Source: an uncultured Candidatus Saccharibacteria bacterium (GTDB lineage: Bacteria > Patescibacteriota > Minisyncoccia > Phycocordibacterales > JACOZG01). Taken from it: 64,000 nucleotides of DNA. The DNA is taken from assembly GCA_964648765.1 (NCBI GenBank), contig CAZYLF010000001.1, positions 12,155 to 76,154 of the forward strand, in the 5' to 3' direction. The notes under the pieces were generated by a model that worked only from the letters and a program-made list of their open reading frames with translations, was not told the DNA's origin and did not search any database. The number at the start of each line of letters is the position of its first letter. Position 1 is the stretch's first letter. Shown one piece after another: positions 52-43,184 of the stretch. The position numbers and the translations under genes were made by a program.

Positions 52-2151
52 CTACGCGACAGCCAGAGCCTCCTCAATGTCGGCCGTCGAGCTCACCGGA
101 ACGATTTCCGCCCAGCTCACTCGCCGCAAACTGAGACTCGGCTCACCAAGTGAAGCAAGGCTCACAGTCTGCTCCATCTTGCCGGTCTTGCTATTCTTGA
201 CCGGTGTGGGAGTAATACCCTGGAACAGCTTGTTGCCGCTTTTCTCCATCGCAAACAGGATCAAGCGCTTAATGCAGCGCACCACCAGCAAACGCTTACG
301 CACTGCCTTGGCCTTCTCCTCAGCCTCTTCAAGTGCAGTCACCCGACTAAAGTCAGGGGTTGCCGCAACCTTAAATCCCTTGAGCTCATACTTAGAGGCC
401 GCTGCCGCGTAGCTGTCACTTGCCTCAACCTTAGTCCGCTCAGGATAAGATGGAGCAGTGCCCGTAGAAACGCGAAGCGCCTTCACTCGGGCATTGATCG
501 CCTTCTGCTCGGCCTCCAGCATGATCTCTTCCTTCATCAAATCAATAAGGCCAAGTCCCTTAGGGTTGGCCCATGAAGAAACAATCATCGGCAACACTGT
601 GAGGTCAAGCGTGAAGAGCTTAGTCTCCGAAAACCGGAGATTGTCAGCGATCACGCCCCACTTCTGACAAAGCTCAAAGGCCTTCTTTGTAAGATAGGCT
701 TCGAGAGTGTCTTGGTGGAGACTACCGTCTTTGATAATGACGTAGTTCCGGAAACGCTGTCCGTCAACCCACTTGCCGGTATCCTCATCCTGTTCCTCCA
801 CATCAACTTCCGTCTTCATGGAGAAATTGAATCGTTCCTGATTCGACTGAATCTCAGTCATCTTGATCTTGGCATTCGGCTTGGGACGCACACCTTTTTC
901 GATCACCGTGGCGGTGGTCTTTTGGTATGTGCCACGAGGGATGAATACGGTGCAATCTTCTTCAAGAAGCACCCGAAGTAAATTGACCACACAAGCGGCC
1001 TCACCAGCTCCGATAAACTTCTTGGTTGAGTAACGCTGACGGATACCCGTGTCGATAATGATTCGACGCAATTGATCCCCCACCTCGAGACGTTCTCGGT
1101 CGGTGTAAGCACTGCCCGCCATCATGCCAAGCATGTTCTGCCCAGCTTCCTGGAGAATCTTGGATGATGCAACCAGATCACCAGTTTGGAATGCCCACGA
1201 GGCAAACGCCAATGAGGCATCCAGCGCACCACCTTCAGACAAAGCCTTGGTGGTAATCGGTTCGGCATCAAACGCCTCGCCGTTCACCTTGCCACTCATG
1301 GTCAGGCTAGTTGTCCCGGTTGGGAGAACCACAAACAATGTGACCTCACCATCGTGGAGAGACCGGAGTGTTGCCACTCCATTATCCCCAACTCGATCCA
1401 CTTGCGGAGTTGCTCGGAGAACCATTCCTGGCTTCCCCTTGCCGCCCGTAAATGAAAGTTGCGCGTCAACAAAACTTGTTGCGCGACCAGTGGCCAGAAT
1501 ATCGCTAATCACCGGACCAAAAAGTCCGATGTCATTGATATGCCGATTAACACCAGTCCCACCATTTTTGCGAACGAGATCAGCCAGAAAGCTGGCATTG
1601 TAATAATTGCCGTAACCCAAAGTGGACAAGCTTGCGTCGTGGCTCAGACCCAAAGTTTGAGCATGTTCCACAGACTGCGCGACCTCTTCAGCCTCACTCC
1701 AACGAGAGGGTACGGGGCAACCATCAGTAAACAACATCAAATGATGTTGTAGACCACCAGCATTTTCCACACTCTCAATCACCCGCTCCAGACCTTCTGA
1801 AAACACGGTGTTGCTGAGAGTGTGAACGGCCCCAATTTCTTCAACCAGCTGCTTCTTCCCCCGAGCATCGCAGACCAAAGGACCAGCCAAAAGCTTGGCT
1901 TGGTCGTGACCGCTAAAGATAATGATCGAGGCCAGGTCAGCGGGATTCAACGTGCCGATGAAGGCTTGCAGATCCCTCTTTACCTGATTCAACGCCCAGG
2001 CCATCGAGCCTGAAACGTCCCACTGAAGTAGCCAATGTACTGGCCCAGCAGTTGGTGGCCGACTTGCCCTCAGAACGACTTTTGCCACCGTGTTACCGGT
2101 GGCTTTAAGAGTACCCAACTCGCAACTCACGACCTTCAGATCGTTCCTCAA
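52..2151 (-). CDS. vWA (von Willebrand factor A) domain protein, 699 aa, GC-rich foreign-looking gene
   Basis: N-terminal MIDAS-like motif DVSGSM (DxSxS) with downstream T and D residues typical of vWA. The ORF begins with TTG preceded by GGAAGGAG. GC is about 55 % against about 42 % for the neighbouring genes. The C-terminal approximately 450 aa were not recognised. Confidence 0.6.
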   Translation of the reverse strand: MRNDLKVVSCELGTLKATGNTVAKVVLRASRPPTAGPVHWLLQWDVSGSMAWALNQVKRDLQAFIGTLNPADLASIIIFSGHDQAKLLAGPLVCDARGKKQLVEEIGAVHTLSNTVFSEGLERVIESVENAGGLQHHLMLFTDGCPVPSRWSEAEEVAQSVEHAQTLGLSHDASLSTLGYGNYYNASFLADLVRKNGGTGVNRHINDIGLFGPVISDILATGRATSFVDAQLSFTGGKGKPGMVLRATPQVDRVGDNGVATLRSLHDGEVTLFVVLPTGTTSLTMSGKVNGEAFDAEPITTKALSEGGALDASLAFASWAFQTGDLVASSKILQEAGQNMLGMMAGSAYTDRERLEVGDQLRRIIIDTGIRQRYSTKKFIGAGEAACVVNLLRVLLEEDCTVFIPRGTYQKTTATVIEKGVRPKPNAKIKMTEIQSNQERFNFSMKTEVDVEEQDEDTGKWVDGQRFRNYVIIKDGSLHQDTLEAYLTKKAFELCQKWGVIADNLRFSETKLFTLDLTVLPMIVSSWANPKGLGLIDLMKEEIMLEAEQKAINARVKALRVSTGTAPSYPERTKVEASDSYAAAASKYELKGFKVAATPDFSRVTALEEAEEKAKAVRKRLLVVRCIKRLILFAMEKSGNKLFQGITPTPVKNSKTGKMEQTVSLASLGEPSLSLRRVSWAEIVPVSSTADIEEALAVA

Positions 2152-6536: not shown

Positions 6537-7622
6537 CTATTTAATGGGGATATATGGGTCTCGACTTAGTCTTTCGCCTTTTATCCCCCTCATGGCCAAA
6601 CCTAAAGCCTCTAGATACAAATGAGCCTCGCTAGAAAATAGCGACCGATGCTCACCAGCCTGCACCAGAATTGGCGCAATGATAGGTAAAATAGTTTTTA
6701 AGCGAAACTCTTGATTAAAATATTCTGCTAGGCCAGGTAAACGCGCCGAGCCGCCAGCAAGCACAATTAATTCTGGTGGCAAACCGGCATGCGCCGACCG
6801 GTCAGCAAAAGTTGCGCGCATGTCAGCTAAAAGTGGGGCTAATTCCTTTTTAATAATTTGCCCAACTTTTGCCTCCGGACCATTTAGACCATTTTTTATT
6901 TTTAAAGCTTCGGCAGTGGGAGTAGGGAGTTTAAGTTCCTTAGCGATAGCTCCAGTTAAAACATCCCCAGCAATCTGATTAACAAATGTGTAATAAAGTC
7001 CTGACGGTCCAAACAAAGCAATAAATGTTTGCCTTGCGCCAATATCCACCAAACAGATATTTTTTCTAGGATGACTTGGCTCTATCCCCCGCCAGGTAGC
7101 CACCGTTTCAAGTTCAAAGGCATTAACCTTAACATTAATTGATTTGAAAAAGTTATCCCAAGTGGCCACAGCATCACTGTCGGCCACCAAAATTAACACC
7201 CTGGCTTTACCAGTGGCATCATCGATAATTTTGTGTGACACAATTTGACGCGCCCTAGGTAATGGCACATGCTTTTCAGCCATTTCACCCACCAACTCTT
7301 TAAGTGCCAATTTATTTGTCACCACCGTTTCATCTGGCACAAAATAATGAGTATAAAAATGCCGCTCGGGTAAACCAAAAGTAAAAGTCTCGCCCGTCAT
7401 TGAGAGGGGTTTGGCGTTTGCTAAAGTTTTTAAAACAATTTCAGCTAAGCGCTTCTCGTCTTTAATTAATCCTCCCACCACCACGCCAGCCGGTATAATT
7501 TGCCGAGCTAAAGATTTAATTTTTAGAGTTTTACCACGCGCGGCCAGCGTCACCACCTCAATGGCACTATCTGAAATATCTATTCCAGCCGACTTGTTTT
7601 CTCCCCAATTAAAATTAAACAT
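6537..7622 (-). CDS. pilM: type IV pilus assembly protein PilM (actin-like ATPase fold), copy 1
   Basis: 361 aa; N-terminal GIDISDSAIEVV and later VDIGARQT segments typical of PilM/FtsA-like ASKHA fold; embedded among pilin genes. Confidence 0.7.
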   Translation of the reverse strand: MFNFNWGENKSAGIDISDSAIEVVTLAARGKTLKIKSLARQIIPAGVVVGGLIKDEKRLAEIVLKTLANAKPLSMTGETFTFGLPERHFYTHYFVPDETVVTNKLALKELVGEMAEKHVPLPRARQIVSHKIIDDATGKARVLILVADSDAVATWDNFFKSINVKVNAFELETVATWRGIEPSHPRKNICLVDIGARQTFIALFGPSGLYYTFVNQIAGDVLTGAIAKELKLPTPTAEALKIKNGLNGPEAKVGQIIKKELAPLLADMRATFADRSAHAGLPPELIVLAGGSARLPGLAEYFNQEFRLKTILPIIAPILVQAGEHRSLFSSEAHLYLEALGLAMRGIKGERLSRDPYIPIK

Positions 7623-8481: not shown

Positions 8482-10218
8482 TTATTTATAATCTAATCTT
8501 ACCTCGCTCACGCTCGGAGTGCTCACGCCATCACCAGTTAGGAAAATCTGATATTGGGCAAAACGATTACCATTTAAAATTTTTGGAATTAACGTGCCAC
8601 TTGCAAGTGTGAAGTAACTCCCTGCTCCGCTTGGTCCTTGCCAGGCGCTCCAGGTGCCAGGGCTCCCACCAGAATCTGGCGCCACCCGAATTTGAAATTC
8701 AGCTCTACATAGTGGGGAACAAACAGGAATAGTTTGAGTCCACTCAATTAACTCAATTGGCGAAACGCCAACCATATCAAAAATTGATGAAATTAAACTT
8801 CCGGAAGTTAAGTAACCGCCACCACTTAGACGGATAATCCGTCCGTTTGCCCCCACAGCAAAACCAGTGCTTCCATTTAATGAAATACCAAATAAATTAT
8901 TGGTCGCAGGGAGTGGTGAGTAAATAGCCCACGTGCTGCCGTTCCAGCGGTAAATATCTCCACCATTTCCAACCACAAAACCGGAAGACGGTGAGGAAAA
9001 GTGAACTTCATTCCACGTATGATTACCAGTGTCTACAAACTCGCTCCACACCGTACCATTCCAACGCAATATTTTCCCAGATGCACCGACCGCCCAAGCA
9101 TCAGTAGCCGAGGTAAATGCCACGCCATTTAGTGCATTGTTTACTGGTGAAGTGATGCTGGTCCACGTGCTACCATTATAGCGATAAATATCTCCACCAT
9201 TACCAACAACAAAACCAAGCGCGGGTGAAGCAAAGTCGACATCATTCCAAGCTTGATTTCCGGTGTCCACAAACTGAATCCAATTGTTACCATTCACCCA
9301 ACGTAAAATTTTTCCCGTGGCTCCCACAGCCCAAGCCTCACTGACCGAAACCATTTTCACCGAGTTTAAATTATTTGTTACTGGTGAGGTCATTACTGCC
9401 CAAGTGGATCCACCAGTAAAACGTCTAATTACCCCTCCATTACCGACCACAAAACCTGAGGTCCCTGAAAACATGCTGACGCCATTCCAGACGTCATTAC
9501 CAGTATCTTGAAAACTTGCCCAATTACTCCCATTAAGCCGGATTATGAATCCTGCATTACCCACCGCAAAACCAGAAGTGGGAGAAACAATTGAGACATC
9601 ATTTAAAGTTTGGGTTGTCGGCGAGGTGGTAGTCGCCCACACAAGTGGCGCGCCTTTAAGTCTCAACTCGCCGGGGTTTGCTACCGCTTCAATATTTCCG
9701 TTGTCACTCAGATAACGATTAGCGACTGACCAATTGGTTTGCCCCGAGCCTCCAGACCAATCAGTTTGGCTCCAACGCTTTGAATCCCAATTTGTAAGAC
9801 GCGAACGGCGGACCGCCTCGCTTGTTTGCCCCGGGCGTGGCGACCAAGACACTCGCACATCCACATCGCGAGTCCGGAGATCAACGGGAGTAAAATTAAT
9901 TGTCCTCGTAAGGCGACCACCGATCACCTCATTTGCTCCCTCACTCGTAAATGCCCAGACCCCAGTAGAACTTGAAACTGCCGTTTGACTGAAAGTTAAC
10001 TCATTCCAACCGCGATTTTTGATTGCCTTAACAGCCCCAAAGCCCTCATTGGCCAACATATCTGCTTCCAAATTATCTTGAGATTGCAAAGCCCCGCCCC
10101 CTCCACCAAGAGTAAGTGAGGCTAAACTTGAAGCGACGATTGCAAAAATTGCCAAAGCCAAAACAGCTTCAAGAATACTGGCTCCCGTTTTACTACTCTT
10201 TGAGACTTTTATAATCAT
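8482..10218 (-). CDS. pilin-like N-terminus fused to a multi-blade beta-propeller (Ycf48/BNR-like repeats); putative pilus tip adhesin
   Basis: The N-terminus KTGASILEAVLALAIFAIVASS is pilin-like (G, then E at +5, then hydrophobic helix). The body contains at least five tandem repeats of about 45 aa. Each follows the pattern GF-VGN-G-I-R-NGS-W...SP-NN-LN-V...AWAVGA-GKILRW, which resembles Ycf48/BNR-type propeller blades. GC is about 50 %. Confidence 0.6.
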   Translation of the reverse strand: MIIKVSKSSKTGASILEAVLALAIFAIVASSLASLTLGGGGGALQSQDNLEADMLANEGFGAVKAIKNRGWNELTFSQTAVSSSTGVWAFTSEGANEVIGGRLTRTINFTPVDLRTRDVDVRVSWSPRPGQTSEAVRRSRLTNWDSKRWSQTDWSGGSGQTNWSVANRYLSDNGNIEAVANPGELRLKGAPLVWATTTSPTTQTLNDVSIVSPTSGFAVGNAGFIIRLNGSNWASFQDTGNDVWNGVSMFSGTSGFVVGNGGVIRRFTGGSTWAVMTSPVTNNLNSVKMVSVSEAWAVGATGKILRWVNGNNWIQFVDTGNQAWNDVDFASPALGFVVGNGGDIYRYNGSTWTSITSPVNNALNGVAFTSATDAWAVGASGKILRWNGTVWSEFVDTGNHTWNEVHFSSPSSGFVVGNGGDIYRWNGSTWAIYSPLPATNNLFGISLNGSTGFAVGANGRIIRLSGGGYLTSGSLISSIFDMVGVSPIELIEWTQTIPVCSPLCRAEFQIRVAPDSGGSPGTWSAWQGPSGAGSYFTLASGTLIPKILNGNRFAQYQIFLTGDGVSTPSVSEVRLDYK

Positions 10219-10685
10219 TCAATATATATTCTGCCAAACTTAGCAATCGTCACTGTAGCAACTTGCCCAACTTGATCACTAAAAATAATTTGCCCTAAAA
10301 CGCTTGGCTCACCTGAGCCATAACTAAAATTAATAATATTATTTGAAAGGTTTGAACTTAAAGAAATGTTTGAATTTAAATTTGTGATCTGACTACCAGG
10401 ACTTATTGTATATGAATCTGGACCAATGGGGTTGATGTTTAAAGTTACGCTATGATGGACACCGCTCACTGCAACTTGCGTACGCATTTTGGCCATACTT
10501 AATTGCTCCGCAAATGTCCGCGCCACCTCACTCAAACTCTCTTTAGGAAATAAATTTCCGTAAATAGGCAAAGCCACAATTAAAAGTAAGATCGTAATTG
10601 CCAGAGTGATTAAGACCTCAACTAAAGTAAATCCTTTATCTTTTGATATTTCCGGTGATTTCATAAATTGGGGTGATGATCGCAA
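10215..10685 (-). CDS. pseudopilin (GspH/FimT-like prepilin N-terminal domain)
   Basis: KDKGFTLVEVLITLAITILL prepilin motif. The start may be the internal ATG at about 10664. The ORF overlaps the 3' end of pilC. Confidence 0.65.
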   Translation of the reverse strand: MRSSPQFMKSPEISKDKGFTLVEVLITLAITILLLIVALPIYGNLFPKESLSEVARTFAEQLSMAKMRTQVAVSGVHHSVTLNINPIGPDSYTISPGSQITNLNSNISLSSNLSNNIINFSYGSGEPSVLGQIIFSDQVGQVATVTIAKFGRIYIE

Positions 10686-11697
10686 GCGCTAAACCCGCCA
10701 CCACCAAACCAATTAAGAGGAGCATGGCTGGCTCAATAGTGGTAGAAAGATTTTTGGTAGTCTTATTAAGTTCAAGTTCATAAAAATCACTTAGGTAAAA
10801 TAGAGTTTCTTCAAACTTGCCTGACTCCTCACTCACGCGGATCATCCGCGTGAGCATCACGGGGAAAAGTTTAGGGAATTCTGCCAGCGCTTCAGAGAGT
10901 CTTCCGCCACCAGAAACGCGTGCCGCTGCGCGCTTAATTGCCAATTTATAATAATAATTATTAATTGAGCGTTCGCTTGTAGTGAGAGACTCCACCGCGT
11001 TTTGACCACTCTTAAGGAGTGAGCCGAGGCTGCGGGTAAAGCGCGCTAAGTTTAATGCGCGCGTGGCCGGACCAATAATTGGTAAACGAACAAACAAAAA
11101 ATGAGTAACAGGGTAAATAAACTTTTGTCGTAAAAACCAAATTAAAAAAATAATTAAAGCAATGAGGCCGGTGAAAATTTGCCAGCCGTAATTGTCCATC
11201 AAGTTTGAAAAATAGATGAGCGCACGAGTACTAAATGGCAAAGTAACTTTAAGACCCTGAAAGAGCGGCACAATTTTAGGTAGCACTAAAAATGATAGGG
11301 CTAAACCTAAAATAAAAGTGATTATTAAAACCGCAATTGGGTAAACCATCGCGCCCTTAACCTTGCTTGAAAGCTCGCGCTCCTTCTCTAACTCTTTGGC
11401 GATATTTTCTAAATTGTCGGCCAGTGTGCCTGATGACTCCCCCACGTAAACCGTGTTAATAAATAGTCCAGAAAAAACTTTAGGGTAGGCGCCAAGCGCA
11501 CCTGAAAAAGTTTGGCCCGACTCCACAGCGTGTAAAACATTTTTTAAAATACTTTGGAGTTTACCTTGTGATGAATCTACCGATACTGCGAGCGCATCAG
11601 TGAGTGTGAGCCCCGAGCGAAGCTCAAGCGAAAGTTGTTTGGCCAAAAGTGCTTTGTCCGTTAAACTAACACGCCCCCAAGAAAGATCTTTGCTCAT
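10636..11697 (-). CDS. pilC: type IV pilus assembly platform protein PilC (GspF family)
   Basis: 353 aa with two T2SS-F-like repeats and three predicted TM segments; located next to the pilin genes and pilB. Confidence 0.75.
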   Translation of the reverse strand: MSKDLSWGRVSLTDKALLAKQLSLELRSGLTLTDALAVSVDSSQGKLQSILKNVLHAVESGQTFSGALGAYPKVFSGLFINTVYVGESSGTLADNLENIAKELEKERELSSKVKGAMVYPIAVLIITFILGLALSFLVLPKIVPLFQGLKVTLPFSTRALIYFSNLMDNYGWQIFTGLIALIIFLIWFLRQKFIYPVTHFLFVRLPIIGPATRALNLARFTRSLGSLLKSGQNAVESLTTSERSINNYYYKLAIKRAAARVSGGGRLSEALAEFPKLFPVMLTRMIRVSEESGKFEETLFYLSDFYELELNKTTKNLSTTIEPAMLLLIGLVVAGLALAIITPIYEITGNIKR

Positions 11698-11739: not shown

Positions 11740-11778
11740 GTTAAAAAAGAAAAGCTGTGCCCTTTTGAGCACAGCTTC
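11740..11778 (-). terminator. rho-independent terminator downstream of the 211-aa gene
   Basis: On the minus strand, hairpin aagctgtgc...gcacagctt is followed by TTTTCTTTTTT. Confidence 0.6.
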
Positions 11779-11802
11779 CAATGTTTACGTTTTGGAATAC
11801 GT

Positions 11803-12438
11803 TTATTTTTTATTGGGAAAGCGAAGAACGGGATTAGCGTCGCCACACAAAAGTCTGAGCTGGCGCAAGCGGAACACAACAATATCACTGGTCTCGTAGA
11901 GACAAGGAACGATCAGGCTGTTGTCCTCATCCCGCGCCACTGATTTCCAGGCATAGATCTCCTGGCGATTGAAATGCTCTCGGAAGAACTTAGTGCCCCG
12001 TTTCTTGATTTCCTCAAGATCGCGAAAGTTAAGACAACTCTCAAGCATATTTTGAGTCTTGATATGCTCGTAGAGATTGAGGCCTCCTATCGACTTATTT
12101 CCCTTCTGCTCCTCATGGAGCCAGCGTTCGAGTTTGAGAACATCAAACTCCTCAGGTCCAGCCTTCTCAAGCTCTGGATGAATAACTTCCTTCACCGATA
12201 AAGAATAGACGGGAGCTACAGTACGATCAACATAGATAATAGAGCTTGAATTTTTTCGGTTCTTTTTGGTAGGAGTTGTAACTTGAACCTTGGGCCAACA
12301 GGTTTCGCCACGAGCAAACTTTCGAAGCTCCTTTTTCCACCTTTCTCCATCAGTACCCGCCATGTTGACGAGGATTTGATTAAAGGTCCCCGCCTCCTCC
12401 CCCATAATTTGGAGTGCCTTGCTGAGCGTGCTATTCAC
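11803..12438 (-). CDS. hypothetical protein, 211 aa, inserted between pilC and pilB as an autonomous unit
   Basis: No recognisable motif. It has its own TTGACT-18-TATAAT promoter, an AAAGGAG SD and a hairpin terminator. GC is slightly higher than the pilus genes. Confidence 0.5.
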   Translation of the reverse strand: MNSTLSKALQIMGEEAGTFNQILVNMAGTDGERWKKELRKFARGETCWPKVQVTTPTKKNRKNSSSIIYVDRTVAPVYSLSVKEVIHPELEKAGPEEFDVLKLERWLHEEQKGNKSIGGLNLYEHIKTQNMLESCLNFRDLEEIKKRGTKFFREHFNRQEIYAWKSVARDEDNSLIVPCLYETSDIVVFRLRQLRLLCGDANPVLRFPNKK

Positions 12439-12515
12439 GGTCAGTCTCCTTTGTGAAAAACCTTTATTTTCGAGCCCGGGCTTATATAACCCAGCACAAC
12501 CCGAAGACTAACCAT

Positions 12516-12545
12516 ATTATAAATGAAAAAATGTGAAAAAGTCAA
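12516..12545 (-). promoter_or_regulatory. putative sigma70-type promoter (TTGACT, about 18 nt, TATAAT) for the 211-aa gene
   Basis: Reverse complement reads aaaacTTGACTttttcacattttttcatTTATAATatgg; a GGAG SD and the ATG follow at about 70 nt. Confidence 0.5.
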
Positions 12546-12548: not shown

Positions 12549-14240
12549 TTACACCCTAATTACCCGGAGAACTTCTTGGAGAGTGGTGGTGCCATCGAGG
12601 GCTTTGGTGATGCCATCTTCGAGCATCGTGCTCATACTCTCCGATTCAGCCACCTTAAGCACCTCGCCTGAAGACGCGCGTGCCACCACCAGCTCCTTAA
12701 TTTTTTCTGTCATTTCAAGAACTTCAAAGATTCCCACTCGCCCGTTGAAGCCAGTGTGATTACACACGTCACAGCCCGCACCTTTATAAAAAGTAATCCC
12801 CTCTAATTTTTTATAACCATTTTCCACAAAAATCTTTTTTAAATGCTCATCGTGATCAATTAACTTTTTTTCTTCATCAGAAATTTCATATGACTCACGA
12901 CAACGACTGCAAATTTTGCGCACCAAGCGTTGAGCAATCACCACATTAACTGTGGAAGCTACTAAAAACGGTTCCACCTTCATATCAAGTAAACGTGGCA
13001 AAGTGGTTGGAGCATCGTTGGCGTGCAAAGTTGAGAGCACCAAGTGCCCCGTCATCGCAGAATTAACCGCAATGCTCGCCGTTTCTTCATCTCTAATTTC
13101 TCCTACCATAATAATGTCTGGGTCCTGACGCACGATTGATCGAAGCCCAGAGGCAAAAGTTAAATTAGCTTTAGTGTTTACTTGAATTTGACTCACGCCT
13201 TTAATTTCATATTCCACCGGATCCTCGATGGTGGAAATGTGCACTTCGCGAGTATTTAAAATTTTCATCACCGCGTACACAGTGGTGGTTTTACCCGAAC
13301 CGGTTGGACCGGTCACCAAGATCATGCCGTGAGGATTATCAATCGCACTTTTTACCTTGGCCATATCACCCTCTCTTAAACCCAGATCAGTGAGAGTAAA
13401 GCGGCGACTTTCTTCTGAAAGAATACGCATCACCACGTTCTCACCTGTGGTCACTGGCAAAATTGAAACACGCACATCAATGGGACTATTTTGTGAAGTA
13501 AATTGCAGTTTACCGTCTTGAGCCGTCATATGCTCATCAATGCGCAAGCGCGCCATCACTTTAATGCGACTCACTAAAGTTTCTTCAAGTGTCACAGGCA
13601 AAGTGAGCATGTCGTGCATCACTCCATCAATCCGAAAGCGGAGTAATATTTTCTCGCGTGAAGGCTCTAAGTGAATATCTGAAGCCCGAGATTGATAACC
13701 GTACTGGAGAATAGCGTCCACGGTTTTTACCGCTACTTCATTTTGTTCGTCTTTGGTTAAGTTTCCACCAAGTTTAGCCACCAATGCTAAAAGCTCATCT
13801 TTAATCCCGCCACGATAATTTTGCAAAGCCTCCTTGAGCCCACGCGGAGTAATATAAAAAACGTTAACAGGTTCACCCAGCCGCTTTTCAATCGCGTGTC
13901 GCGCCTCCACATTATTTGGATCCACCATCCCCACCTTCACCCCACTCTCCCCTCTACTAAGTGCTACGGCACCAAACTCTCGCGCCACCATCTCCGGGAT
14001 CATCATTAAAACTTCTGGTTCAACTTTTTCTTGTGCAATATCCAAAAAGCGTGAGTTTAAACTTTCCGCCAATAATTTTCCTAACTGTTCATCTTTAATT
14101 AAATCGTGATCTACGAGTACCTCCACCAAATCGCGCCCACTCGCCTCACTGTCAGTAACCGCCACAGTAAAATCCTCTTCTTTAATTAATCCTGGCACCA
14201 CCAGTAACTCCTTTAATTCTTCCGCTCTTTTCACCATCAC
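12549..14240 (-). CDS. pilB: type IV pilus assembly ATPase PilB (GspE family) with N-terminal GSPII-E domain
   Basis: Walker A GPTGSGKTTT and Walker B/Asp box around MILVTGPTGSGKTTT...EDPVEY. His box LSTLHANDAPT and a C-terminal tetracysteine CxxC...CxxC are present. Length 563 aa. Confidence 0.85.
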   Translation of the reverse strand: MMVKRAEELKELLVVPGLIKEEDFTVAVTDSEASGRDLVEVLVDHDLIKDEQLGKLLAESLNSRFLDIAQEKVEPEVLMMIPEMVAREFGAVALSRGESGVKVGMVDPNNVEARHAIEKRLGEPVNVFYITPRGLKEALQNYRGGIKDELLALVAKLGGNLTKDEQNEVAVKTVDAILQYGYQSRASDIHLEPSREKILLRFRIDGVMHDMLTLPVTLEETLVSRIKVMARLRIDEHMTAQDGKLQFTSQNSPIDVRVSILPVTTGENVVMRILSEESRRFTLTDLGLREGDMAKVKSAIDNPHGMILVTGPTGSGKTTTVYAVMKILNTREVHISTIEDPVEYEIKGVSQIQVNTKANLTFASGLRSIVRQDPDIIMVGEIRDEETASIAVNSAMTGHLVLSTLHANDAPTTLPRLLDMKVEPFLVASTVNVVIAQRLVRKICSRCRESYEISDEEKKLIDHDEHLKKIFVENGYKKLEGITFYKGAGCDVCNHTGFNGRVGIFEVLEMTEKIKELVVARASSGEVLKVAESESMSTMLEDGITKALDGTTTLQEVLRVIRV

Positions 14241-14241: not shown

Positions 14242-14619
14242 TTATTTTAAATATGTTTTCATTTTATCTACCACCTCGCCCATCTGCACGTCTGACTTTA
14301 CTAAATAATCCACCGCGCCAAGATTTTTAGCCTTCTCACGATCTGACTCCTGACCCAAATTTGAAAGAACCACTACTGGGATCTTAGCTAAATCTGCATC
14401 GAGTTTTAAAGCTTCAAGCACCTGAAAACCGGTCCGTTGGGGCATAATTAAATCAAGGAGAATAATGTCTGGATGCTCTTGAGTAATTAAATTAATGGCC
14501 TCCAAACCATTTGGCGCCTTAACCACCTGAAAACCCTCACGCTCAAGCTTGTCGCCAAGCGCCACAGAGAGAAATTTGTCATCCTCAGCCAAAAGAACCT
14601 TGTATTTTGCCTTTTCCAT
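14242..14619 (-). CDS. response regulator, receiver domain only (CheY-like)
   Basis: 125 aa. Acidic pocket (LLAEDD), phospho-acceptor Asp in ILLDLIMP, conserved T and K further downstream. No output domain. Confidence 0.75.
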   Translation of the reverse strand: MEKAKYKVLLAEDDKFLSVALGDKLEREGFQVVKAPNGLEAINLITQEHPDIILLDLIMPQRTGFQVLEALKLDADLAKIPVVVLSNLGQESDREKAKNLGAVDYLVKSDVQMGEVVDKMKTYLK

Positions 14620-14636
14620 AAACCTTATAATAACAG

Positions 14637-15767
14637 TTAGGAGAGCGCTCGGCTACCTGTTTTACGCTCCATCCCCGAGAGGGGTAGGGTGACGTAAAAA
14701 GTGGTGCCCTTGCCCTCGAGTGAGTCAAACCAAATCTTGCCGCCAGAATTCTCTACGATTGATTTAATTATATAAAGCCCTAAGCCCGTGCCCTCAGCGT
14801 CGGTTTCTCTAATATTGTCGGCGCGGAAGAGTTTGGTAAAAATCTTCTTTTGATCGTTAGTGGGGATACCATAACCTGAATCACCTACTCTGATCAGCAA
14901 AAATTCATCGGCCAAACTTATGGCAATCGTCACCAAACCATCTTGGGGTGTGTATTTAATTGCGTTAGAAAGTAAATTTTGGAAAATCATCCGCGCAAGT
15001 TTTTGATCCAGATTAACTTTAGGCACATCTGGGGCATAAACTTTTTCAAGCTTAATTTTTTTAGCTTCCACGGCTGGAGCAAGCTCAGTGAGCACGCTCT
15101 CAGCCAGCTCACTCACATTGGTAGGCTCTGGCTCCACCAAAAAAGTACCAAGCTCCAAACGCGATACGTTTAATAATGAGTTAACTAAATCCACCATCCG
15201 TTTATTGGAATCTGAAAGATTTTTTAAATATTCTTTTTGTTTATCATTTAAACCGCCAACCTCTTGGCTCAACATCGCCTCGGCATACCAACCAATTGCC
15301 GAAAGTGGAGTTTTAAGTTGATGCGATGCAAGCGAAACGAATTCTGTTTTGGCCCGATCCACATCACGCTCTTTAGTAATATCACGGAAAAGTAAAATTG
15401 CCCCAGTAACTTCTGCTTTTTCTAAAAGTGGCGCGGCCATTAATGAAACTGGGTAAATTTGGTCTTGGCGATTTTTGAGTGAAATGTTGTCGAGCAGCGT
15501 GAAAGTGATAATGTTTTTATCAATCATCGCGCGCTCATGAGGTGTTTCAGTTTGCGGAATATCCTTGCCGTCTTTTTGCAAAAATAAAATCTCGTGGATA
15601 TTTTTGCCCATCGCCTCGGCCGGAGAAAGACGGAGCAAAATGCCCGCGGCTTGGTTCATGATTATTACCTTCCGAGAAGTGTCCACCGCAATTAAACCTT
15701 CCGCCATAGAAGAAAGGATGGCGTTTAATTGGTCTTGTCGAGCATGAACTTCATCCATTTGGCTCAT
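14637..15767 (-). CDS. sensor histidine kinase, cytoplasmic, with PAS-like N-terminal region
   Basis: H-box SHQLKTPLSAI (HisKA) and a HATPase_c region with the G-boxes DSGYGIP and GTGLGL. No TM segments. The N-terminal approximately 150 aa are PAS-like. Confidence 0.75.
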   Translation of the reverse strand: MSQMDEVHARQDQLNAILSSMAEGLIAVDTSRKVIIMNQAAGILLRLSPAEAMGKNIHEILFLQKDGKDIPQTETPHERAMIDKNIITFTLLDNISLKNRQDQIYPVSLMAAPLLEKAEVTGAILLFRDITKERDVDRAKTEFVSLASHQLKTPLSAIGWYAEAMLSQEVGGLNDKQKEYLKNLSDSNKRMVDLVNSLLNVSRLELGTFLVEPEPTNVSELAESVLTELAPAVEAKKIKLEKVYAPDVPKVNLDQKLARMIFQNLLSNAIKYTPQDGLVTIAISLADEFLLIRVGDSGYGIPTNDQKKIFTKLFRADNIRETDAEGTGLGLYIIKSIVENSGGKIWFDSLEGKGTTFYVTLPLSGMERKTGSRALS

Positions 15768-21018: not shown

Positions 21019-21579
21019 TTAATTTTCTTTAAAACTTAAAAGCGTGGCATCAAAACTGGCCGACCACCATGCAGTATTTTTATTTGCTGCAGTGGGCAAA
21101 TCCACAAGCTTAAGATCAACTCGGTTAAAAAATAATTTAAACTGAGAATTCTCGATCAAATTCATAAACTGCATTAAATTATTAAACGGCCCCTCAGCAC
21201 TAAAGTTTGCTGCCAAAGCGTCTCGCTTTTCAAAACTGGTTTTACCAACTGACTGAAAACGAAAATCAACACCAGAGGTTTTTGAGAGAGCTTCCATCCT
21301 TTCAATCACCAAATTGAAGGTATCGGTATCCACAAAATACGGGTCGAGCTTAGGGCGGAAATCTTTAAGCTCTGTGGCAAGCTTTGAAAGGTTCTCCACG
21401 TCATTTCGTTTTTGAGATAAGTCTTTGAGCTCAACGGCACTTTTAAGCAAGTCTCGCTCCGCTCGCAAGAGTAAAACAGACAATCCCGCCACCCCCGCAA
21501 TAAGGAGCACGGTAAAAACTAGTGAGATAATTAAAGCTGAACCTTTCTGTAAATTAGTTTTCATTTTATTTTTTTTCAT
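21019..21579 (-). CDS. pilO: type IV pilus assembly protein PilO-like
   Basis: N-terminal TM helix followed by a coiled-coil and a small globular domain; positioned after pilM-pilN. Confidence 0.55.
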   Translation of the reverse strand: MKKNKMKTNLQKGSALIISLVFTVLLIAGVAGLSVLLLRAERDLLKSAVELKDLSQKRNDVENLSKLATELKDFRPKLDPYFVDTDTFNLVIERMEALSKTSGVDFRFQSVGKTSFEKRDALAANFSAEGPFNNLMQFMNLIENSQFKLFFNRVDLKLVDLPTAANKNTAWWSASFDATLLSFKEN

Positions 21580-22123
21580 CGTTGAAGTCTAAGTTGATGA
21601 TGAAATTAACATCTCTCTCATTTAAAAGCACATCAATCGGGTAAGAAATATCGGTAAGCAATGGATCCAATTTAAGAGCATTGATAAAATCCAAAAATTG
21701 CTGCCTTGTGGCGGCGTTACCATCAAGCGCTAGTTCAACTTTGTTTAAAGCTTGAGGACTCCGAGTATAAAACAAACCTCGCCAAGTAATGCCCGGGCGA
21801 CGCACCTCAAGCATGTGTTGCCACACCTCCGTAACTGGAATATTAGTTTCAAGATCTACTTTAAGAATTTTTACCTTGTCAGCCAACCCCCCCAATTCGC
21901 TTTGTAAAGTATTTACTTCAAATTTTTCTGACTCTTTGCGAGCCGTCTCAAGCTCCCTCATAAGTGCAGATTGACGCAAGCTTACCACTAAATAAAGCGA
22001 GCCAATCCCCACAAAAAAAATGATTAACAAACTCATTAAAAGCCCCGCGGCCACCGTGGCTAAGCGCGCGCGATAAGTGTGACGCACTCGATCCTTATCT
22101 TCAGGTAAAATTAAATTAATCAT
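21566..22123 (-). CDS. pilN: type IV pilus assembly protein PilN-like
   Basis: Short cytoplasmic N-terminus (MINLILPEDKDR), one TM helix, then a coiled-coil; overlaps pilO by 14 nt. Confidence 0.6.
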   Translation of the reverse strand: MINLILPEDKDRVRHTYRARLATVAAGLLMSLLIIFFVGIGSLYLVVSLRQSALMRELETARKESEKFEVNTLQSELGGLADKVKILKVDLETNIPVTEVWQHMLEVRRPGITWRGLFYTRSPQALNKVELALDGNAATRQQFLDFINALKLDPLLTDISYPIDVLLNERDVNFIINLDFNDEKK

Positions 22124-22127
22124 AAAT

Positions 22128-23213
22128 TTATCGTGGTACGTTACGGAGCGCCAAACCCATGGCCGTGGCGTAGCGGAGTGATTGATTAAAGGTCATGGGT
22201 GGGAGAGTGGTATCCATAAGGTGGGTGTTGGTCCACACATTTCCAATCTCAACCGGTACGCCCAAGCTCATGGCTAAATATTCCGCAAGTCCTGGTAAAG
22301 TGGCCTGACCGCCGCCAAGTACCACGCGTTCAATTTTTTCTTTTTTACGTCCAGTAGTTTTAGACTCCCAAAAATTATACTGCTTAGCGATTTCATCTTT
22401 AAGAATTGAGACGATTGGGATTACAGAAAATAATAACTCTTTCTCCCGCCTAGAATGAAGTAAGCCCTTAGTGATTTTAATTTTTTCTGCAGTAGCATAA
22501 TCTACCTTTAAATTTTTTTGAATAGCTTTGGTAATATCCTCGCCGCCAATATTATTAACCGTTGAAGAAAAAAAGGCTTTATGTCCACTTACCACCAAAA
22601 AACTGGTTCGGGTTTTACCAAAATCTACCACTAACGTGGTTTCGCGGGTGTGGAAAGGTGTAAGAGCGCGAGCAATCGCCTGTGCCTCAATCTCAAGTGC
22701 GAGTAGTTCAAGCCCAGCATTTTTAAGCGTATTTGAGTAACTTGCCACAGTACTAATAGGCATTACCGACACCACAACATCAAAGGTATCTGCTTCAGAT
22801 TCAGGGTGATGTAAAATCTCATAATCAAACACAGCCTCCTTGGCAGGAATTGGCACATGTTCCTCAAGTCCAAGCTCAATCGCCCCTCTTAATTCATCTA
22901 AACCCATCGCCGGCATGGGGATACGCACAATATACGCCTCCTCCTCAGGCAATGAAGCAAAGACTTTCTTAATTCCCTGCTCCACTTTTAGTGAGCGTAG
23001 AATCTCTTCCAGCTTTTTTTGATCCTTTATTTCACCAGCCTCAATGATTCCTACTGGAATCTCCTTCTCTCCAAATTTTTTAACTAGGTAAGAATCACCC
23101 TTTGGCATCAATTCCAAATACTTCACCGACTGATCGGAAATGTCTAAGCCCACGGCCGGCATCTCAAGATATTTTGGAGTCGGAAAAAGTTTGTGAAATA
23201 AGCTACGAGGCAT
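22128..23213 (-). CDS. pilM: type IV pilus assembly protein PilM, copy 2
   Basis: 361 aa actin-like ATPase fold (GLDISDQSVKYLEL...). Heads a pilM-N-O gene order. Confidence 0.7.
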   Translation of the reverse strand: MPRSLFHKLFPTPKYLEMPAVGLDISDQSVKYLELMPKGDSYLVKKFGEKEIPVGIIEAGEIKDQKKLEEILRSLKVEQGIKKVFASLPEEEAYIVRIPMPAMGLDELRGAIELGLEEHVPIPAKEAVFDYEILHHPESEADTFDVVVSVMPISTVASYSNTLKNAGLELLALEIEAQAIARALTPFHTRETTLVVDFGKTRTSFLVVSGHKAFFSSTVNNIGGEDITKAIQKNLKVDYATAEKIKITKGLLHSRREKELLFSVIPIVSILKDEIAKQYNFWESKTTGRKKEKIERVVLGGGQATLPGLAEYLAMSLGVPVEIGNVWTNTHLMDTTLPPMTFNQSLRYATAMGLALRNVPR

Positions 23214-25107: not shown

Positions 25108-27870
25108 TCACTTATTTTTATATTTTTCCATCACCTCCTCTTCCACCTCACTGCGAGGTCGACCGAAGGTAATTAGCGACACTTCTCTCAATTTAGCAAC
25201 TTGCTCAAAATTGCCTTTACTTGGTGGCAAAGTTTCAACATTAAAGGGCTTAACTGGGCGTCCGTTTGAAAGTAACCTGAGGTATGCGTGTCGATTATCC
25301 AAATTAATAATATCGTTTTTGGTAAATATTGGAGTAAATTGTCGTTCTAAAAATTCGGCATCCTCAATACCTACCCGAAACACCGCCATCGACCCCACGT
25401 TGCCAAACACGGCATTTTTAATCTTTTCTTCAACCTGACCAATAAATTGGTGAGCAATTGTTAAGGAGAGGCGATATTTGCGAGCTTCCGACAAAATGGT
25501 CGCAATCGAATCGGTGGTAATGTTTTGGAACTCATCAAGATACAAAAAGAAGTCAGACATCCGCGATCCTAAATTATCAACGCGGGAAAGTGCTGCCATT
25601 AAAATCTTACCCACTAAAATCAAACCAATTAAATGTGAGTTGATATCGCCCAAACGACCCTTTGATAAGTTAACGAGTAAAATCTTTTTACTATCCATAA
25701 TTTCTCGAAGATTAAAAGAGGATTTTTCTTGAGAAATAATCGGTCGCATTATTTCATTTGCTAAAAACACATCAAACTTAGAGGTGATGTAAGGCACAAT
25801 GTTGGCAAGTGAGGCCTCACCACCCGCCTTCTCGGCGATCTCCTTCCAAAACTGCACGACGATTGGATTTTTGCAACGAGAAATTTTTAAGTCACGAAAC
25901 GCCTTGTTCGCCATCACTCGCGACACATCAAGCAAGGTTGAACCAGATTCAGGATCCTCAATTACCAACATGGTGGCATTACGGAAATATTGCTCAAACA
26001 TCGGACCCATCGACTCAGGCACTGCTCCATAAAGTTTTTGAAAAATACTAAACATCTCATTAACCACAAAAGTTTTTTGTTCTGGAAAATTGTGATCAAA
26101 CTCAAGCATATTAAGTGCCATGGCTCGAGTAGTGTCAGCAGGGTCAAAATAAATAACGTCTTTGAAACGTTCCTGCGGAATATTAGCTAGAATATCTTGG
26201 ACATCTGAACCGTGAGGATCAATAAAACAAACTCCGGAACCATCTTTAATATCCTGCACAATCATATTTTTAAGTAATGTGGTTTTACCAGTGCCAGTTT
26301 GACCAATTACATAAAAGTGGCGCATTCGATCCTCTGCCCCCACATACACACTAGTCTCCTCACCACGGTGGCGGTTAATACCAATCAACGTGCCAGATGT
26401 AGGCAGATCAAGCGGCGGTGACGCCGTGCCAGCTTTATTTTGCTTTAATTGTGGTGCGGCTTTACCTTCAGAAGTGGCAGGAAAATGAATAAGGGTTGTT
26501 GCTTCTGATAAATTAATTACAAACTGTTCGTCCTCATTAAAAATTCTGAATGAAAAATTTCTCAAAACTTTTTTAAGGTCTCCTTTTTTATATCGATTCC
26601 AATTTAAACGATTACCATAACCATTTTCAAATTGATTAAAACTTGATTCAATATCCTCAATTATTGCATCAGCTTCAGCCTCACTTTTAGAAGAAACGAT
26701 TAGGCGTAAATTAACACCCACTAGTGGTGATTTGAGTTTTTTTACAAACTGCTCAATTGCTACCTGATCTACCGCTCCGGCAAGTTTTGTTTTTTCTTGT
26801 TTTTCTTTCTCCTTACTTTCATTACTCTTAAAAAAGCTGAGAAATTCCTTTGCTACAACAGTGCCAAAAGTCTGCTTCATCTCCTTAAGCGCCTCACTTA
26901 TTTTTGCTCCTTTTCTGATTTTTTCGATTGCTTTTTGTGATTTTTTCACCAATTCGTCTTGTCTACCACCAAAAATAAATTGGATGGCAGCCCCTTCGCC
27001 ATCACGATCAATTTTAGAAAAACTGTTTAAAATTGTACTGAGTGGGTCGAAATCAAACTCTTCATAAAACTTTAGTGGGTAAAGAAAATTATTAGCTAAC
27101 TTGGCCACCGACCCCACGGTTACTCCGTCCGGGTTAAAAATATTATAATCATTTTTATGTTCTTCAATTCGTGCCCCAGGGAAAATGGCAATGATTTGCT
27201 TCTCGAGTAATATTTTTTTATTTGTCGGGACAGAGACATAAAAAACAAATTGGTCACTGCCATTTGCATTTGCAATTTCAATTGAAAAATTATTTTCATT
27301 ACTCAAGCTACTTTGCCCCGAAAGCATGCCAGCATAAAATTGCTCCATGCTTGAGATGAGCTCTTTCAATCTCTTACCCTTATCTTCATTAAAGCTTTCG
27401 GGCAGACTAACCTCAAAAAGTGCCATATGTAAAGGTTTCCACATCGGGCTCGATTCCTTGAGGTCGTTTGCCTTATGACCAGTGGAAATATACTGGATTA
27501 AAAAACGATGAAAATCGTCCTCAAGATGAGGGTTGCCCATCTTAGCTAAAACCGAAAGCGCATTCTTTAACCCCCTACTTTCCATCACCCCCAAAAGATG
27601 TTCAATTTGCTTATCATGAGCTTCGGGCGCCAAATCTAGGGTAATTGCCTCGGCTTCAGTCTGACTTATCTGACGATTAGGGGCTAATACCTTTTCTGGT
27701 GCAGTATTTGCATAGGCTTTAATCACCTCAGCGCCCACTTGGGCCGGTGCCGCCTCCCGACCCTCGGCCTTTTCGGCTTCAATGTGACGCTTAACCTCAT
27801 TTTTGAGGTGAGCAATTTCTGCCTCCGGGCTATCAAAAACTATCGGTTGCTCTGGAGTAAATTTATCCAT
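25108..27870 (-). CDS. VirD4/TraG/TraD-like (type IV coupling protein / DUF87-like) P-loop ATPase with approximately 480-aa N-terminal extension
   Basis: Walker A GQTGTGKTT; Walker B-like FLYLDEFQN; downstream AHQ motif (LSLTIAHQFIGQ) as in TrwB/VirD4-family DNA translocases. N-terminal half unrecognised. Confidence 0.5.
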   Translation of the reverse strand: MDKFTPEQPIVFDSPEAEIAHLKNEVKRHIEAEKAEGREAAPAQVGAEVIKAYANTAPEKVLAPNRQISQTEAEAITLDLAPEAHDKQIEHLLGVMESRGLKNALSVLAKMGNPHLEDDFHRFLIQYISTGHKANDLKESSPMWKPLHMALFEVSLPESFNEDKGKRLKELISSMEQFYAGMLSGQSSLSNENNFSIEIANANGSDQFVFYVSVPTNKKILLEKQIIAIFPGARIEEHKNDYNIFNPDGVTVGSVAKLANNFLYPLKFYEEFDFDPLSTILNSFSKIDRDGEGAAIQFIFGGRQDELVKKSQKAIEKIRKGAKISEALKEMKQTFGTVVAKEFLSFFKSNESKEKEKQEKTKLAGAVDQVAIEQFVKKLKSPLVGVNLRLIVSSKSEAEADAIIEDIESSFNQFENGYGNRLNWNRYKKGDLKKVLRNFSFRIFNEDEQFVINLSEATTLIHFPATSEGKAAPQLKQNKAGTASPPLDLPTSGTLIGINRHRGEETSVYVGAEDRMRHFYVIGQTGTGKTTLLKNMIVQDIKDGSGVCFIDPHGSDVQDILANIPQERFKDVIYFDPADTTRAMALNMLEFDHNFPEQKTFVVNEMFSIFQKLYGAVPESMGPMFEQYFRNATMLVIEDPESGSTLLDVSRVMANKAFRDLKISRCKNPIVVQFWKEIAEKAGGEASLANIVPYITSKFDVFLANEIMRPIISQEKSSFNLREIMDSKKILLVNLSKGRLGDINSHLIGLILVGKILMAALSRVDNLGSRMSDFFLYLDEFQNITTDSIATILSEARKYRLSLTIAHQFIGQVEEKIKNAVFGNVGSMAVFRVGIEDAEFLERQFTPIFTKNDIINLDNRHAYLRLLSNGRPVKPFNVETLPPSKGNFEQVAKLREVSLITFGRPRSEVEEEVMEKYKNK

Positions 27871-42293: not shown

Positions 42294-42340
42294 AAACAAA
42301 ACAGGGGCGAATGCACAAGTGCATCCGCCCCCTTTTTTTT
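42294..42340. terminator. bidirectional rho-independent terminator between the desaturase and the island gene
   Basis: Hairpin ggggcgaatgcacaagtgcatccgcccc with CTTTTTTTT on plus and TGTTTTGTTTTT on minus. Confidence 0.6.
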
Positions 42341-42986
42341 ACTCGCCTCTCTGGTGGGCTTTCCCCACGTCCAGTCCCGAACGAAGCTTCCTCTTTTTCT
42401 TTGTGGCCTCCTGCACCAACGATCGCGGATCTGCGCAGTGCACCCACGTGCCACCATCCCGAGACTGCGCGTCAGGCTTGTAGCGTTCCCACTTCAGGCC
42501 ACCCATCTCGGAGAGCAGCATTGAGCCGTCACTCGTCTCCAGAGCGGTGAGGTGGATGTCGTAGCCAGCCTTCTCAGCGAGCTGCCATAACGTCACTCCC
42601 TCAACAGGTGTGAGGGGTGAGAAGTCCAACCCCTCATCCAGCCCTTCCATCACGAGCGACACCCGAAAGGTGCCGAAGGCGCGCTTGGCATACTCACCAA
42701 CAAATGCCCAGCGCTCCGCACGGAGCTTGCCGTCACCCGAAGGTTCCCCCTCAATGAAGACGACGGTCTTCCCGACCATGTCTTCGTTCACATCCGCTGC
42801 CCCATGGGCAGAAATGTGAATTTTGGGCAGGGCGTACTTCCGATCTGGCATTACCCGACCGTAGGTCTTCTTGTGAAGACCGAAAATGAGCTGCGTCTCA
42901 GCCTCGTAGGCAAAGACAAGTCCACGGTCCGCCAAAACCTTGGTGATTGTTGCCACACGCACTCGGCCGTTCTTCTTGCCCAACAT
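42339..42986 (-). CDS. hypothetical protein family A, copy 1 (215 aa; beta-rich N-terminal region, Lys/Arg-rich C-terminal tail), GC-rich island
   Basis: Start at internal ATG with GGGAGA SD. It shares VxV.T..T..A.GL and GKT.V(V/F)I segments with the 201-aa neighbour. GC is about 60 %. Confidence 0.55.
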   Translation of the reverse strand: MLGKKNGRVRVATITKVLADRGLVFAYEAETQLIFGLHKKTYGRVMPDRKYALPKIHISAHGAADVNEDMVGKTVVFIEGEPSGDGKLRAERWAFVGEYAKRAFGTFRVSLVMEGLDEGLDFSPLTPVEGVTLWQLAEKAGYDIHLTALETSDGSMLLSEMGGLKWERYKPDAQSRDGGTWVHCADPRSLVQEATKKKRKLRSGLDVGKAHQRGE

Positions 42987-43057
42987 AATAGTTCTCCCAT
43001 ATCTCAATGTTCACTTTAGGGGGGGCGACAATCGCCTACTCCATTTGTTTGTTTCCG

Positions 43058-43093
43058 ACTTACATCCTACACTATTTTAAACTAAAAGTCAAG
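43058..43093 (-). promoter_or_regulatory. repeated promoter module, copy 1 (TTGACT, 17 nt, TAGGAT)
   Basis: 36-nt sequence acttacatcctacactattttaaactaaaagtcaag is identical to 43848-43883. Reverse complement is cTTGACTtttagtttaaaatagtgTAGGATgtaagt. Confidence 0.5.
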
Positions 43094-43100
43094 TACTAAT

Positions 43101-43145
43101 TAAACAAAAAAATGGGTCGGTCAATGTTTTCACATCAACCGGCCC
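43101..43145 (-). terminator. hairpin terminator after the 201-aa gene (ggYcggt...aaccggcc family)
   Basis: Imperfect 13-bp stem ggtcggtcaatgt/acatcaaccggcc, followed on the minus strand by a T-run. Confidence 0.5.
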
Positions 43146-43184
43146 GGCATTTGGCCCCCGCCATTTGCCTACCCCCTTTGAGAA

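Follow-up and report, generated by a model that had tools for sequence, protein, structure and literature searches.

Little is known about how ultrasmall Patescibacteria locate their hosts and stay attached to them, and the sole genetic evidence comes from one oral Saccharibacterium, whose host binding depends in part on a propeller-bearing pilin. The same question is raised by a gene of an uncultured Candidatus Saccharibacteria bacterium, which lies in a type IV pilus cluster on contig CAZYLF010000001.1, within the stretch of 64,000 nucleotides (nt) analysed here (positions 12,155-76,154; hereafter referred to as the window). A first-pass annotation, made from the sequence alone, had described the product of this gene, a 578-amino-acid (aa) protein, as a pilin N-terminus fused to a beta-propeller and as a candidate tip adhesin. 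The open reading frame (ORF) was found as described, starting with an ATG codon on the minus strand (Table 1), and the question is what such a protein does in a pilus. The interpretation that we favour, with moderate confidence, is that it is a modular minor pilin of Patescibacteria, sits at the tip of a type IV pilus, and displays the propeller as ligand-binding cargo.

The pilin module and the inserted propeller

The N-terminus of the protein is MIIKVSKSSKTG/ASILEAVLALAIFAIVASSLASL (here and below, the slash marks the predicted cleavage site), with Gly at position -1, Glu at position +5, and ~20 hydrophobic residues. A lysine-rich, Gly-terminated leader followed by Glu at +5 and this hydrophobic stretch is what characterizes a class III (prepilin) signal. 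The residue at +1 is Ala, and the sequence from there onwards is ASILE AVLALAIFAIVASSLASL, in which the Glu at +5 corresponds to Glu17. Neither Gly12 nor Glu17 varies among 36 aligned full-length homologs, and Glu17 is also invariant among 46 aligned sequences that include longer relatives. The prepilin-like character assigned earlier to this region is thus borne out, and a motif for cleavage by prepilin peptidase, for which the first-pass annotation had suggested a search, is present, with cleavage predicted to occur after Gly12.

AlphaFold2 modelling of the full-length protein, for which the input alignment contained 36 sequences, yielded a model with a mean predicted local distance difference test (pLDDT) score of 89.3 and a predicted template modelling score (pTM) of 0.69. 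The model comprises a helix (residues 15-69), a set of strands (78-142), a linker with short strands (147-187), a propeller (~192-467), and a beta domain (472-577); both a pilin-like N-terminal helix and a propeller fold are therefore predicted, in agreement with the earlier description and with the Foldseek results given below. The predicted pilin module consists of a ~55-residue helix and a small beta-sheet head, i.e. a lollipop fold, and a second AlphaFold2 model restricted to residues 1-200 contained the same helix and sheet, with pLDDT values of 88-97 up to residue ~143. Residues 145-200 were poorly defined in the shorter model (pLDDT 44-66), whereas the values rose to 82-92 in the full-length model, suggesting that linker and C-terminal domain fold as one unit. 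The two probably form a split beta-sandwich, to which the linker contributes the N-terminal portion. No Pfam family matched the C-terminal domain, and no significant relative of it was detected among the sequences of solved structures in PDB by a profile hidden Markov model (HMM). In the profile HMM searches with this domain and with the N-module, a LigA Big-domain match (E = 0.015) was disregarded because it spans only one beta hairpin. With a pilin module at aa 1-143 and a propeller at aa 191-467, the protein has the architecture of modular pilins, in which a pilin module is joined to a further domain of a kind not confined to pilus biology (Raynaud et al. 2021, PMC8179133).

The propeller contains seven repeats of 37-40 aa each, starting at aa 205, 244, 284, 324, 363, 402, and 441. 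The tandem repeats recognized previously are therefore present, but their number and period differ from the earlier estimate of at least five units of about 45 aa. That they are genuine protein repeats is indicated by the mean pairwise local score of the blades, which is 75.6 compared with 23.0 +/- 1.1 for shuffled blades (z = 47). Two blade types alternate, with 54-67% identity among blades 2, 4, and 6, 64% identity between blades 3 and 5, and ~30% identity across types, so that two successive blades make up a super-repeat unit of 78 aa (234 nt). Seven blades are likewise present in the closest homolog (P0002, 84% identity). At the DNA level, in contrast to the first-pass statement that the repeats are near-identical and may recombine, the best direct repeat pair shows 76% identity over 133 nt and the longest exact repeat within the gene is 17 nt. 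Tandem Repeats Finder detected no array at the repeat period in the gene, the only match being one of 26 nt with a 12-nt period; hence, there is no DNA-level array, and a proneness to recombination is unsupported.

The assignment of the blades to the Ycf48/BNR type proved correct. The Pfam family PSII_BNR (Ycf48) matched the protein with 39.9 bits (gathering cut-off, 27), and, apart from this family and a sub-threshold match to Complex1_49kDa, no Pfam match was obtained at E<=0.1. In a Foldseek search against PDB, the Ycf48 structures 5ojr and 2xbg ranked first (E 4e-15 to 2e-14; TM-score ~0.75 on the target, 21% identity) and were followed by seven-bladed WD40 propellers. Ycf48/Hcf136, a photosystem II assembly factor, belongs to the same Pfam family and is also a seven-bladed propeller, and these matches would be expected if the 578-aa protein genuinely served, as Ycf48 does, in the assembly of a membrane complex. 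However, the score against the NCBIfam Ycf48 equivalog (NF010237) is 40.5 bits, far below the cut-off of 326, indicating that the propeller has a Ycf48-type fold but is not a Ycf48 orthologue. The identity to the Ycf48 structures is low, the domain is embedded in a pilin, and the gene resides in a pilus operon of a non-photosynthetic lineage; this context effectively refutes an assembly-factor role, to which we assign next to no probability.

Scaffold and cargo across the family

A scan of species-representative genomes yielded 53 related loci, which were searched by tblastn with the operon proteins of the window. In these 53 loci, the gene occupying the same slot nearly always starts with a G/QSLLEVI.ALA-type signal and, in most complete genes, ends with ...TP.L.EVRINYK, while the length of its product ranges from 329 to >2,187 aa. 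Insert-free orthologs (L036, L043, and L047; 329-349 aa) align to residues 1-189 and 466-578 of the 578-aa protein with nothing between, indicating that the propeller is an insertion between ...GELRLKG and GGGYLTSG.... The pilin N-terminus is thus not simply fused to a propeller, as was first thought; instead, the propeller is inserted between the conserved linker and a conserved C-terminal beta domain of ~110 aa. The insert-free family members of ~330 aa, consisting of the pilin module and the beta domain, resemble PilX1 of Nanosynbacter lyticus TM7x (Saccharibacteria), a pilin with a beta-jelly-roll (PMC12206443), although the gene order of TM7x locus one differs and PilX1 was compared by description only.

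Judged from these sequences, the cargo is exchangeable in evolution. In addition to genes with no insert or with one propeller, same-slot orthologs were found that carry about two propellers (~1,000 aa) or about three (1,280-1,440 aa), a Laminin_G_3/ConA-like lectin domain (L035 and L039; E ~5e-25), DUF4082 (L034), or domains without a Pfam match, and some of the inserts exceed 1,500 aa. When the full set of 1.84 billion cluster representatives was scanned with the C-terminal domain (111 aa), 749 proteins reached E<=1e-3 and 315 reached E<=1e-10. Among the best matches listed, the domain is nearly always located at the extreme C-terminus and is sometimes repeated. Among the listed proteins starting with Met, 67 of 121 have a strict pilin signal (lengths, 305-2,009 aa); many of the others are truncated gene calls starting inside the helix, and a few have ordinary signal peptides. 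The domain is also present, often in several copies and in up to 13 matched stretches, in four giant proteins of 2,500-4,400 aa (P0139, P0171, P0181, and P0249), and the N-termini of the first three resemble ordinary secretion signal peptides, not pilin signals. The C-terminal domain is thus not exclusive to pilins.

Modular pilins are an established class, and close parallels to this architecture are found in Streptococcus sanguinis. PilB (pilin plus vWA domain), a proven adhesin and modular pilin (PMC8179133), and PilC (pilin plus ConA-like lectin) combine, like the 578-aa protein, a class III signal containing Glu5 and a small pilin module with a bulky extra module, which binds ligands in PilB and PilC and would do so in the 578-aa protein (PMC8179133, PMC9934059); they are likewise encoded in an operon with a minor pilin lacking Glu5, and a tip location has been proposed for them. 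The glycan-binding module of PilC belongs to the same domain superfamily as the Laminin_G_3 cargo of the same-slot orthologs. Unlike in PilB and PilC, the cargo of the 578-aa protein is a Ycf48-like propeller that is nested in the scaffold and not appended by a short loop, and its pilin module, known here from sequence and prediction, looks I-class. The family represents a second topology for modular pilins, in which the cargo is nested within a conserved domain. In the published survey of modular pilins, the architecture IPR012902-IPR028203 (pilin motif plus Ycf48-like domain) occurs once among 264 architectures (Dataset S1 of PMC8179133).

The pilus operon and the proposed function

The gene belongs to a single minus-strand cluster together with pilB, pilC, pilM, and four other pilin-like genes. 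The order is histidine kinase, response regulator, pilB, a 211-aa ORF, pilC, 156-aa pilin, the 578-aa gene, 152-aa pilin, 141-aa pilin-like gene, pilM, and 173-aa pilin, which agrees with the location among minor pilins between pilM and pilC that had been reported; the next pilin gene begins immediately past the stop codon of the 578-aa gene. The order pilB-pilC-pilin-578-aa gene-pilin-Glu5-less pilin-pilM-major pilin is kept, partly or wholly, in most of the 53 loci. Nearly all of these loci carry Patescibacteria labels. The labels include Uhrbacteria, Paceibacterota, Vogelbacteria, Ryanbacteria, Magasanikbacteria, and Falkowbacteria, i.e. many environmental lineages, as well as Campbellbacteria and generic 'Saccharibacteria' or 'Gammaproteobacteria' metagenome-assembled genomes (MAGs).

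The minor pilins were compared with curated pilin models. The upstream 156-aa pilin matches H-class models (GspH, ComGD, and PRK10506) at E ~1e-6 to 1e-4, below the cut-offs, and the 578-aa protein matches gspI at E 0.022-0.032 (15 bits; cut-off, 44). When the N-modules of 18 family members were examined, matches were obtained to ComGE in 16, GspI in 15, XpsI in 11, and PilV in 4 (best E 1.7e-5; all below cut-off), so that I-class models were matched far more often than those of any other class. Homologs of the downstream 152-aa pilin show weak, mixed pilin matches, among which ComGF (J class) recurs. The 141-aa pilin-like protein has no Pfam or NCBIfam match; it lacks Glu5, as do its homologs in the 29 related loci where one was found, which have G/VAALLT-type N-termini, whereas homologs of the other two small pilins mostly retain a G/FTLIE-type signal. 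In the HIJK complex, a missing Glu5 distinguishes the K subunit, which forms the cap, and S. sanguinis PilA shares this property (PMC9934059); the 141-aa protein is a candidate for a Patescibacteria-specific, K-like cap subunit. These weak, concordant signals suggest that the operon reads H-I-J-K with an enlarged I position. The N-module of the family gives weak but recurrent matches to the GspI, PilV, and ComGE profiles, and the 578-aa gene comes second in the series, preceded by an H-like pilin and followed further on by a Glu5-less one, although I subunits are ~100-130 aa in length and have no extra domains.

The frequency of ComGE among these matches also bears on another reading, namely that the operon specifies a competence-type (DNA-uptake) pilus or a pseudopilus, with a large subunit that recognizes DNA, or some other substrate to be imported, and not a host surface. 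Patescibacteria rely on scavenged nucleotides. A role of pili in uptake has been discussed (PMC12206443). However, pilM and a separate 173-aa major pilin of the type IVa pilus type are present, TM7x thin-pilus mutants showed no competence defect (PMC11623550), and neither propellers nor lectins are known as DNA-binding modules; we therefore consider an uptake pilus improbable.

For the preferred interpretation, a tip-located modular pilin, the following sequence of events can be proposed. A prepilin peptidase would remove the 12-residue leader, and the protein would then assemble in the membrane with the three minor pilins encoded next to it, giving a priming complex on PilC/PilB. Polymerization of the major pilin underneath by PilB would bring this complex to the distal tip, where it would cap the filament, and the tip would accommodate the outward-facing propeller and beta-sandwich (~435 residues). 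This cargo would bind a ligand, probably a glycan or protein, on a host cell or other surface. Packing in the filament body leaves little room for bulky modules. Outward display at the tip is suggested because the bulk of the module would be hard to fit in the filament body, and the same argument has been made for modular pilins (PMC8179133).

The closest published counterpart in the same group is PilX2 of TM7x, a pilin with a seven-bladed propeller, whose deletion lowers host binding from 10.6% to 4.6% (PMC11623550, PMC12206443); a propeller-bearing pilin adhesin has thus already been studied genetically in one Saccharibacterium. PilX2 (PMC12206443) and the 578-aa protein are both minor pilins of Patescibacteria that carry a heptabladed beta-propeller, and both are candidate adhesins of a type IV pilus. 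However, PilX2 has RCC1-type repeats and no predicted PilD signal, whereas the 578-aa protein has no RCC1 match at E<=0.1 and carries the canonical Gly-1/Glu+5. The PilX2 gene order (pilA2-pilX2-pilW2-pilV2-pilZ2) also differs from that of the operon in the window, and PilX2 was compared by description only. In Pseudomonas and Neisseria, PilY1/PilC places a seven-bladed propeller at the pilus tip via the core minor pilins and has roles in adhesion (PMC8179133), but it is a non-pilin whose propeller is a carrier module (IPR008707), whereas the 578-aa protein has a pilin signal. No PilY1 family matched the 578-aa protein at E<=0.1 in Pfam, and no PilY1 structure was present among the 50 best Foldseek matches. 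On the basis of Pfam, NCBIfam, and Foldseek, the protein was rejected as a PilY1 homologue, an RCC1 propeller, or a functional Ycf48. When the full-text literature was searched for Candidate Phyla Radiation pilins that bear propellers, only the TM7x work was relevant. The size and spread of the family in environmental Patescibacteria, its I-class position, and the nesting of interchangeable cargo in a scaffold that ends in a conserved domain appear to be undescribed.

Within this framework, the most likely role of the propeller is that of a binding module exposed at the tip of the pilus. It could also be envisaged that the protein is a core priming minor pilin whose cargo is not an adhesin but is enzyme-like or substrate-handling (acting on polysaccharide or cell wall), a sensor, or an anti-retraction device at the tip. 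BNR/Asp-box propellers include glycosidases. Modular pilins with predicted peptidase modules exist (PMC8179133), and PilY1 regulates motility (cited in PMC11623550). The nearest fold, however, is that of Ycf48, a binding protein with no catalytic activity, no enzyme family was matched at E<=0.1, and the replacement of the propeller by a lectin in orthologs points to binding. A non-adhesive cargo is therefore unlikely. With regard to the first-pass proposal of a tip adhesin, the pilin-type N-terminus with its predicted pilin-like module, the Ycf48-like propeller, and the setting in a pilus operon are all upheld, while the label 'tip adhesin' itself is still an inference, although one strengthened by the HIJK-like operon logic, the lectin-bearing same-slot orthologs, and the published analogues (PMC8179133, PMC9934059, PMC12206443).

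Several results weigh against the interpretation of the protein as a tip-located modular pilin. The Pfam pilin motif (N_methyl, PF07963) gave a sub-threshold score for the 578-aa protein (13.5 bits; cut-off, 21.2), as opposed to several of its homologs, which pass the cut-off, and TIGR02532 did not match the protein. No prepilin peptidase was found in the window, either by a scan for the GxGDxK motif or by Pfam scans of 20 ORFs, which yielded no peptidase A24. A Foldseek search of the N-module against PDB returned nothing significant (best E 0.2), its weak matches including EpsI (2ret_C; TM-score 0.56 on the target, E 0.44) and a Thermus pilin, and a profile HMM of the N-module likewise found nothing significant among PDB sequences. 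Every I-class match lies under its curated cut-off. No ligand-binding site was identified in the 578-aa protein, and the propeller shows no hint of special diversification, since the identity to P0002 is 85-87% alike in the pilin head, the propeller, and the C-terminal domain. The tip location, moreover, is inferred from protein size and analogy only.

The sub-threshold motif score and the apparent lack of PilD in the window would also be in line with a membrane-anchored surface protein whose pilin-like N-terminus serves as a signal-anchor only and is never polymerized. Gly-1 and Glu+5 are nevertheless invariant, and Glu5 is required only for subunit-subunit packing in filaments (PMC9934059). 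The gene is also tightly coupled to other pilin genes, and most of the 53 loci retain its placement between them. We accordingly see little chance that the protein is such an anchor.

A broader and decidedly more tentative proposal concerns the family as a whole. It may be, although we hold this to be rather doubtful, that the I-position minor pilin of Patescibacteria is a conserved 'cargo slot', in which a fixed pilin base and a split beta-sandwich receive binding modules that are repeatedly inserted, duplicated, and swapped, and that the cargo is the main determinant of host or surface recognition by the episymbiont. If this were true, the slot would be a well-defined protein recognizable from sequence alone, its variable insert could predict ligand or host classes from metagenomes, and the inserts could be expressed as soluble modules for binding assays.

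Other features of the locus and the window

The coordinates of the modules of the 578-aa protein and of the genes of the pilus cluster are summarized in Table 1. The protein is also present in Sequence Read Archive run SRR14271336.

Table 1. Modules of the 578-aa protein and genes of the surrounding pilus cluster (positions in the window)
Feature	Position	Strand	Remarks
Whole gene, modular minor pilin, 578 aa	8482..10218	-	4-nt overlap of start with stop of upstream pilin gene
Leader peptide, aa 1-12 (MIIKVSKSSKTG)	10183..10218	-	Predicted prepilin peptidase cut after Gly12
Alpha-1 helix, aa 13-69	10012..10182	-	Glu17 (+5); hydrophobic N-terminal half; predicted polymerization helix; AlphaFold2 helix 15-69
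Pilin head, aa 70-143	9790..10011	-	Antiparallel beta-sheet; I-class-like by weak sequence matches; AlphaFold2 pLDDT 88-97
Conserved linker, aa 144-190	9649..9789	-	NWDS..W.QTDWSGG.GQ..W...Y.SD.GNI....GE..L; family alignment
Inserted seven-bladed Ycf48/BNR-like beta-propeller, aa 191-467	8818..9648	-	Pfam, AlphaFold2, Foldseek
Conserved C-terminal beta domain, aa 468-578	8485..8817	-	Invariant Cys500/Cys504; end ...TP.L.EVR.NYK
Histidine kinase	14637-15767	-
Response regulator	14242-14619	-
pilB/GspE assembly ATPase	12549..14240	-
211-aa ORF, unrelated	11803-12438	-	Between pilB and pilC; no Pfam match
pilC/GspF platform protein	10636..11697	-
Upstream minor pilin, 156 aa (ORF call) or 149 aa (public gene call)	10215..10685	-	G/FTLVE; H-class-like
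Downstream minor pilin, 152 aa	8023..8481	-	G/ITLIE
Pilin-like protein, 141 aa	7634..8059	-	G/FIALIT; without Glu5
pilM, actin-like pilus assembly ATPase-fold protein	6537..7622	-
Probable major pilin, 173 aa	5933..6454	-	G/FTLIELLIVIAII

The histidine kinase and response regulator pair (14242-15767, minus strand) is located directly upstream of pilB and is found beside or within the pilus operon in many related loci, suggesting dedicated pilus regulation. The 211-aa ORF between pilB and pilC had no counterpart by tblastn in the 53 related loci, many of which have pilC close behind pilB. On one side of it lies a sigma-70-like promoter close to consensus (11 of 12 matches; 12545-12516), and on the other a terminator-like hairpin with a 13-bp stem (11779-11750). 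The region as a whole (11750-12545, minus strand) looks like a lineage-specific insertion, which might split the operon. In a scan of the operon for promoters and terminators, the counts were not above those in shuffled sequence. PilT was not found in the window.

Among the related loci, 13 are on contigs titled 'uncultured Gammaproteobacteria bacterium' (L018, L020, L024, L025, L030, L033-L036, L038, L041, L043, and L045). As these MAG contigs carry a Patescibacteria-type pilus operon, they are probably mislabelled bins.

A second pilM gene is present at 22128-23213 on the minus strand and matches PilM_2 with 146.8 bits, compared with 75.3 bits for the pilM of the pilin operon. It is followed by two ORFs of ~185 aa on the same strand (21566-22123 and 21019-21579), which have no Pfam matches and are probably pilN and pilO. 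Together, the three genes (21019-23213) mirror the pilM-N-O block of TM7x locus one.

Two islands with a GC content of ~52%, compared with a background of ~42%, were identified at 1-2151 and 42339-45241 and are possibly horizontally acquired. The first encodes a 699-aa VWA_3-domain protein (52-2151, minus strand). The second contains, on the minus strand, four ORFs of ~200 aa without Pfam matches, of which those at 43958-44554 and 44660-45241 are loosely alike, both being similar in length, acidic, and helix-rich. In addition, a 920-aa ATPase is encoded at 25108-27870 on the minus strand; it has HerA/DUF87, TrwB, and TraG-D_C matches and resembles a VirD4/TraG-like coupling protein.

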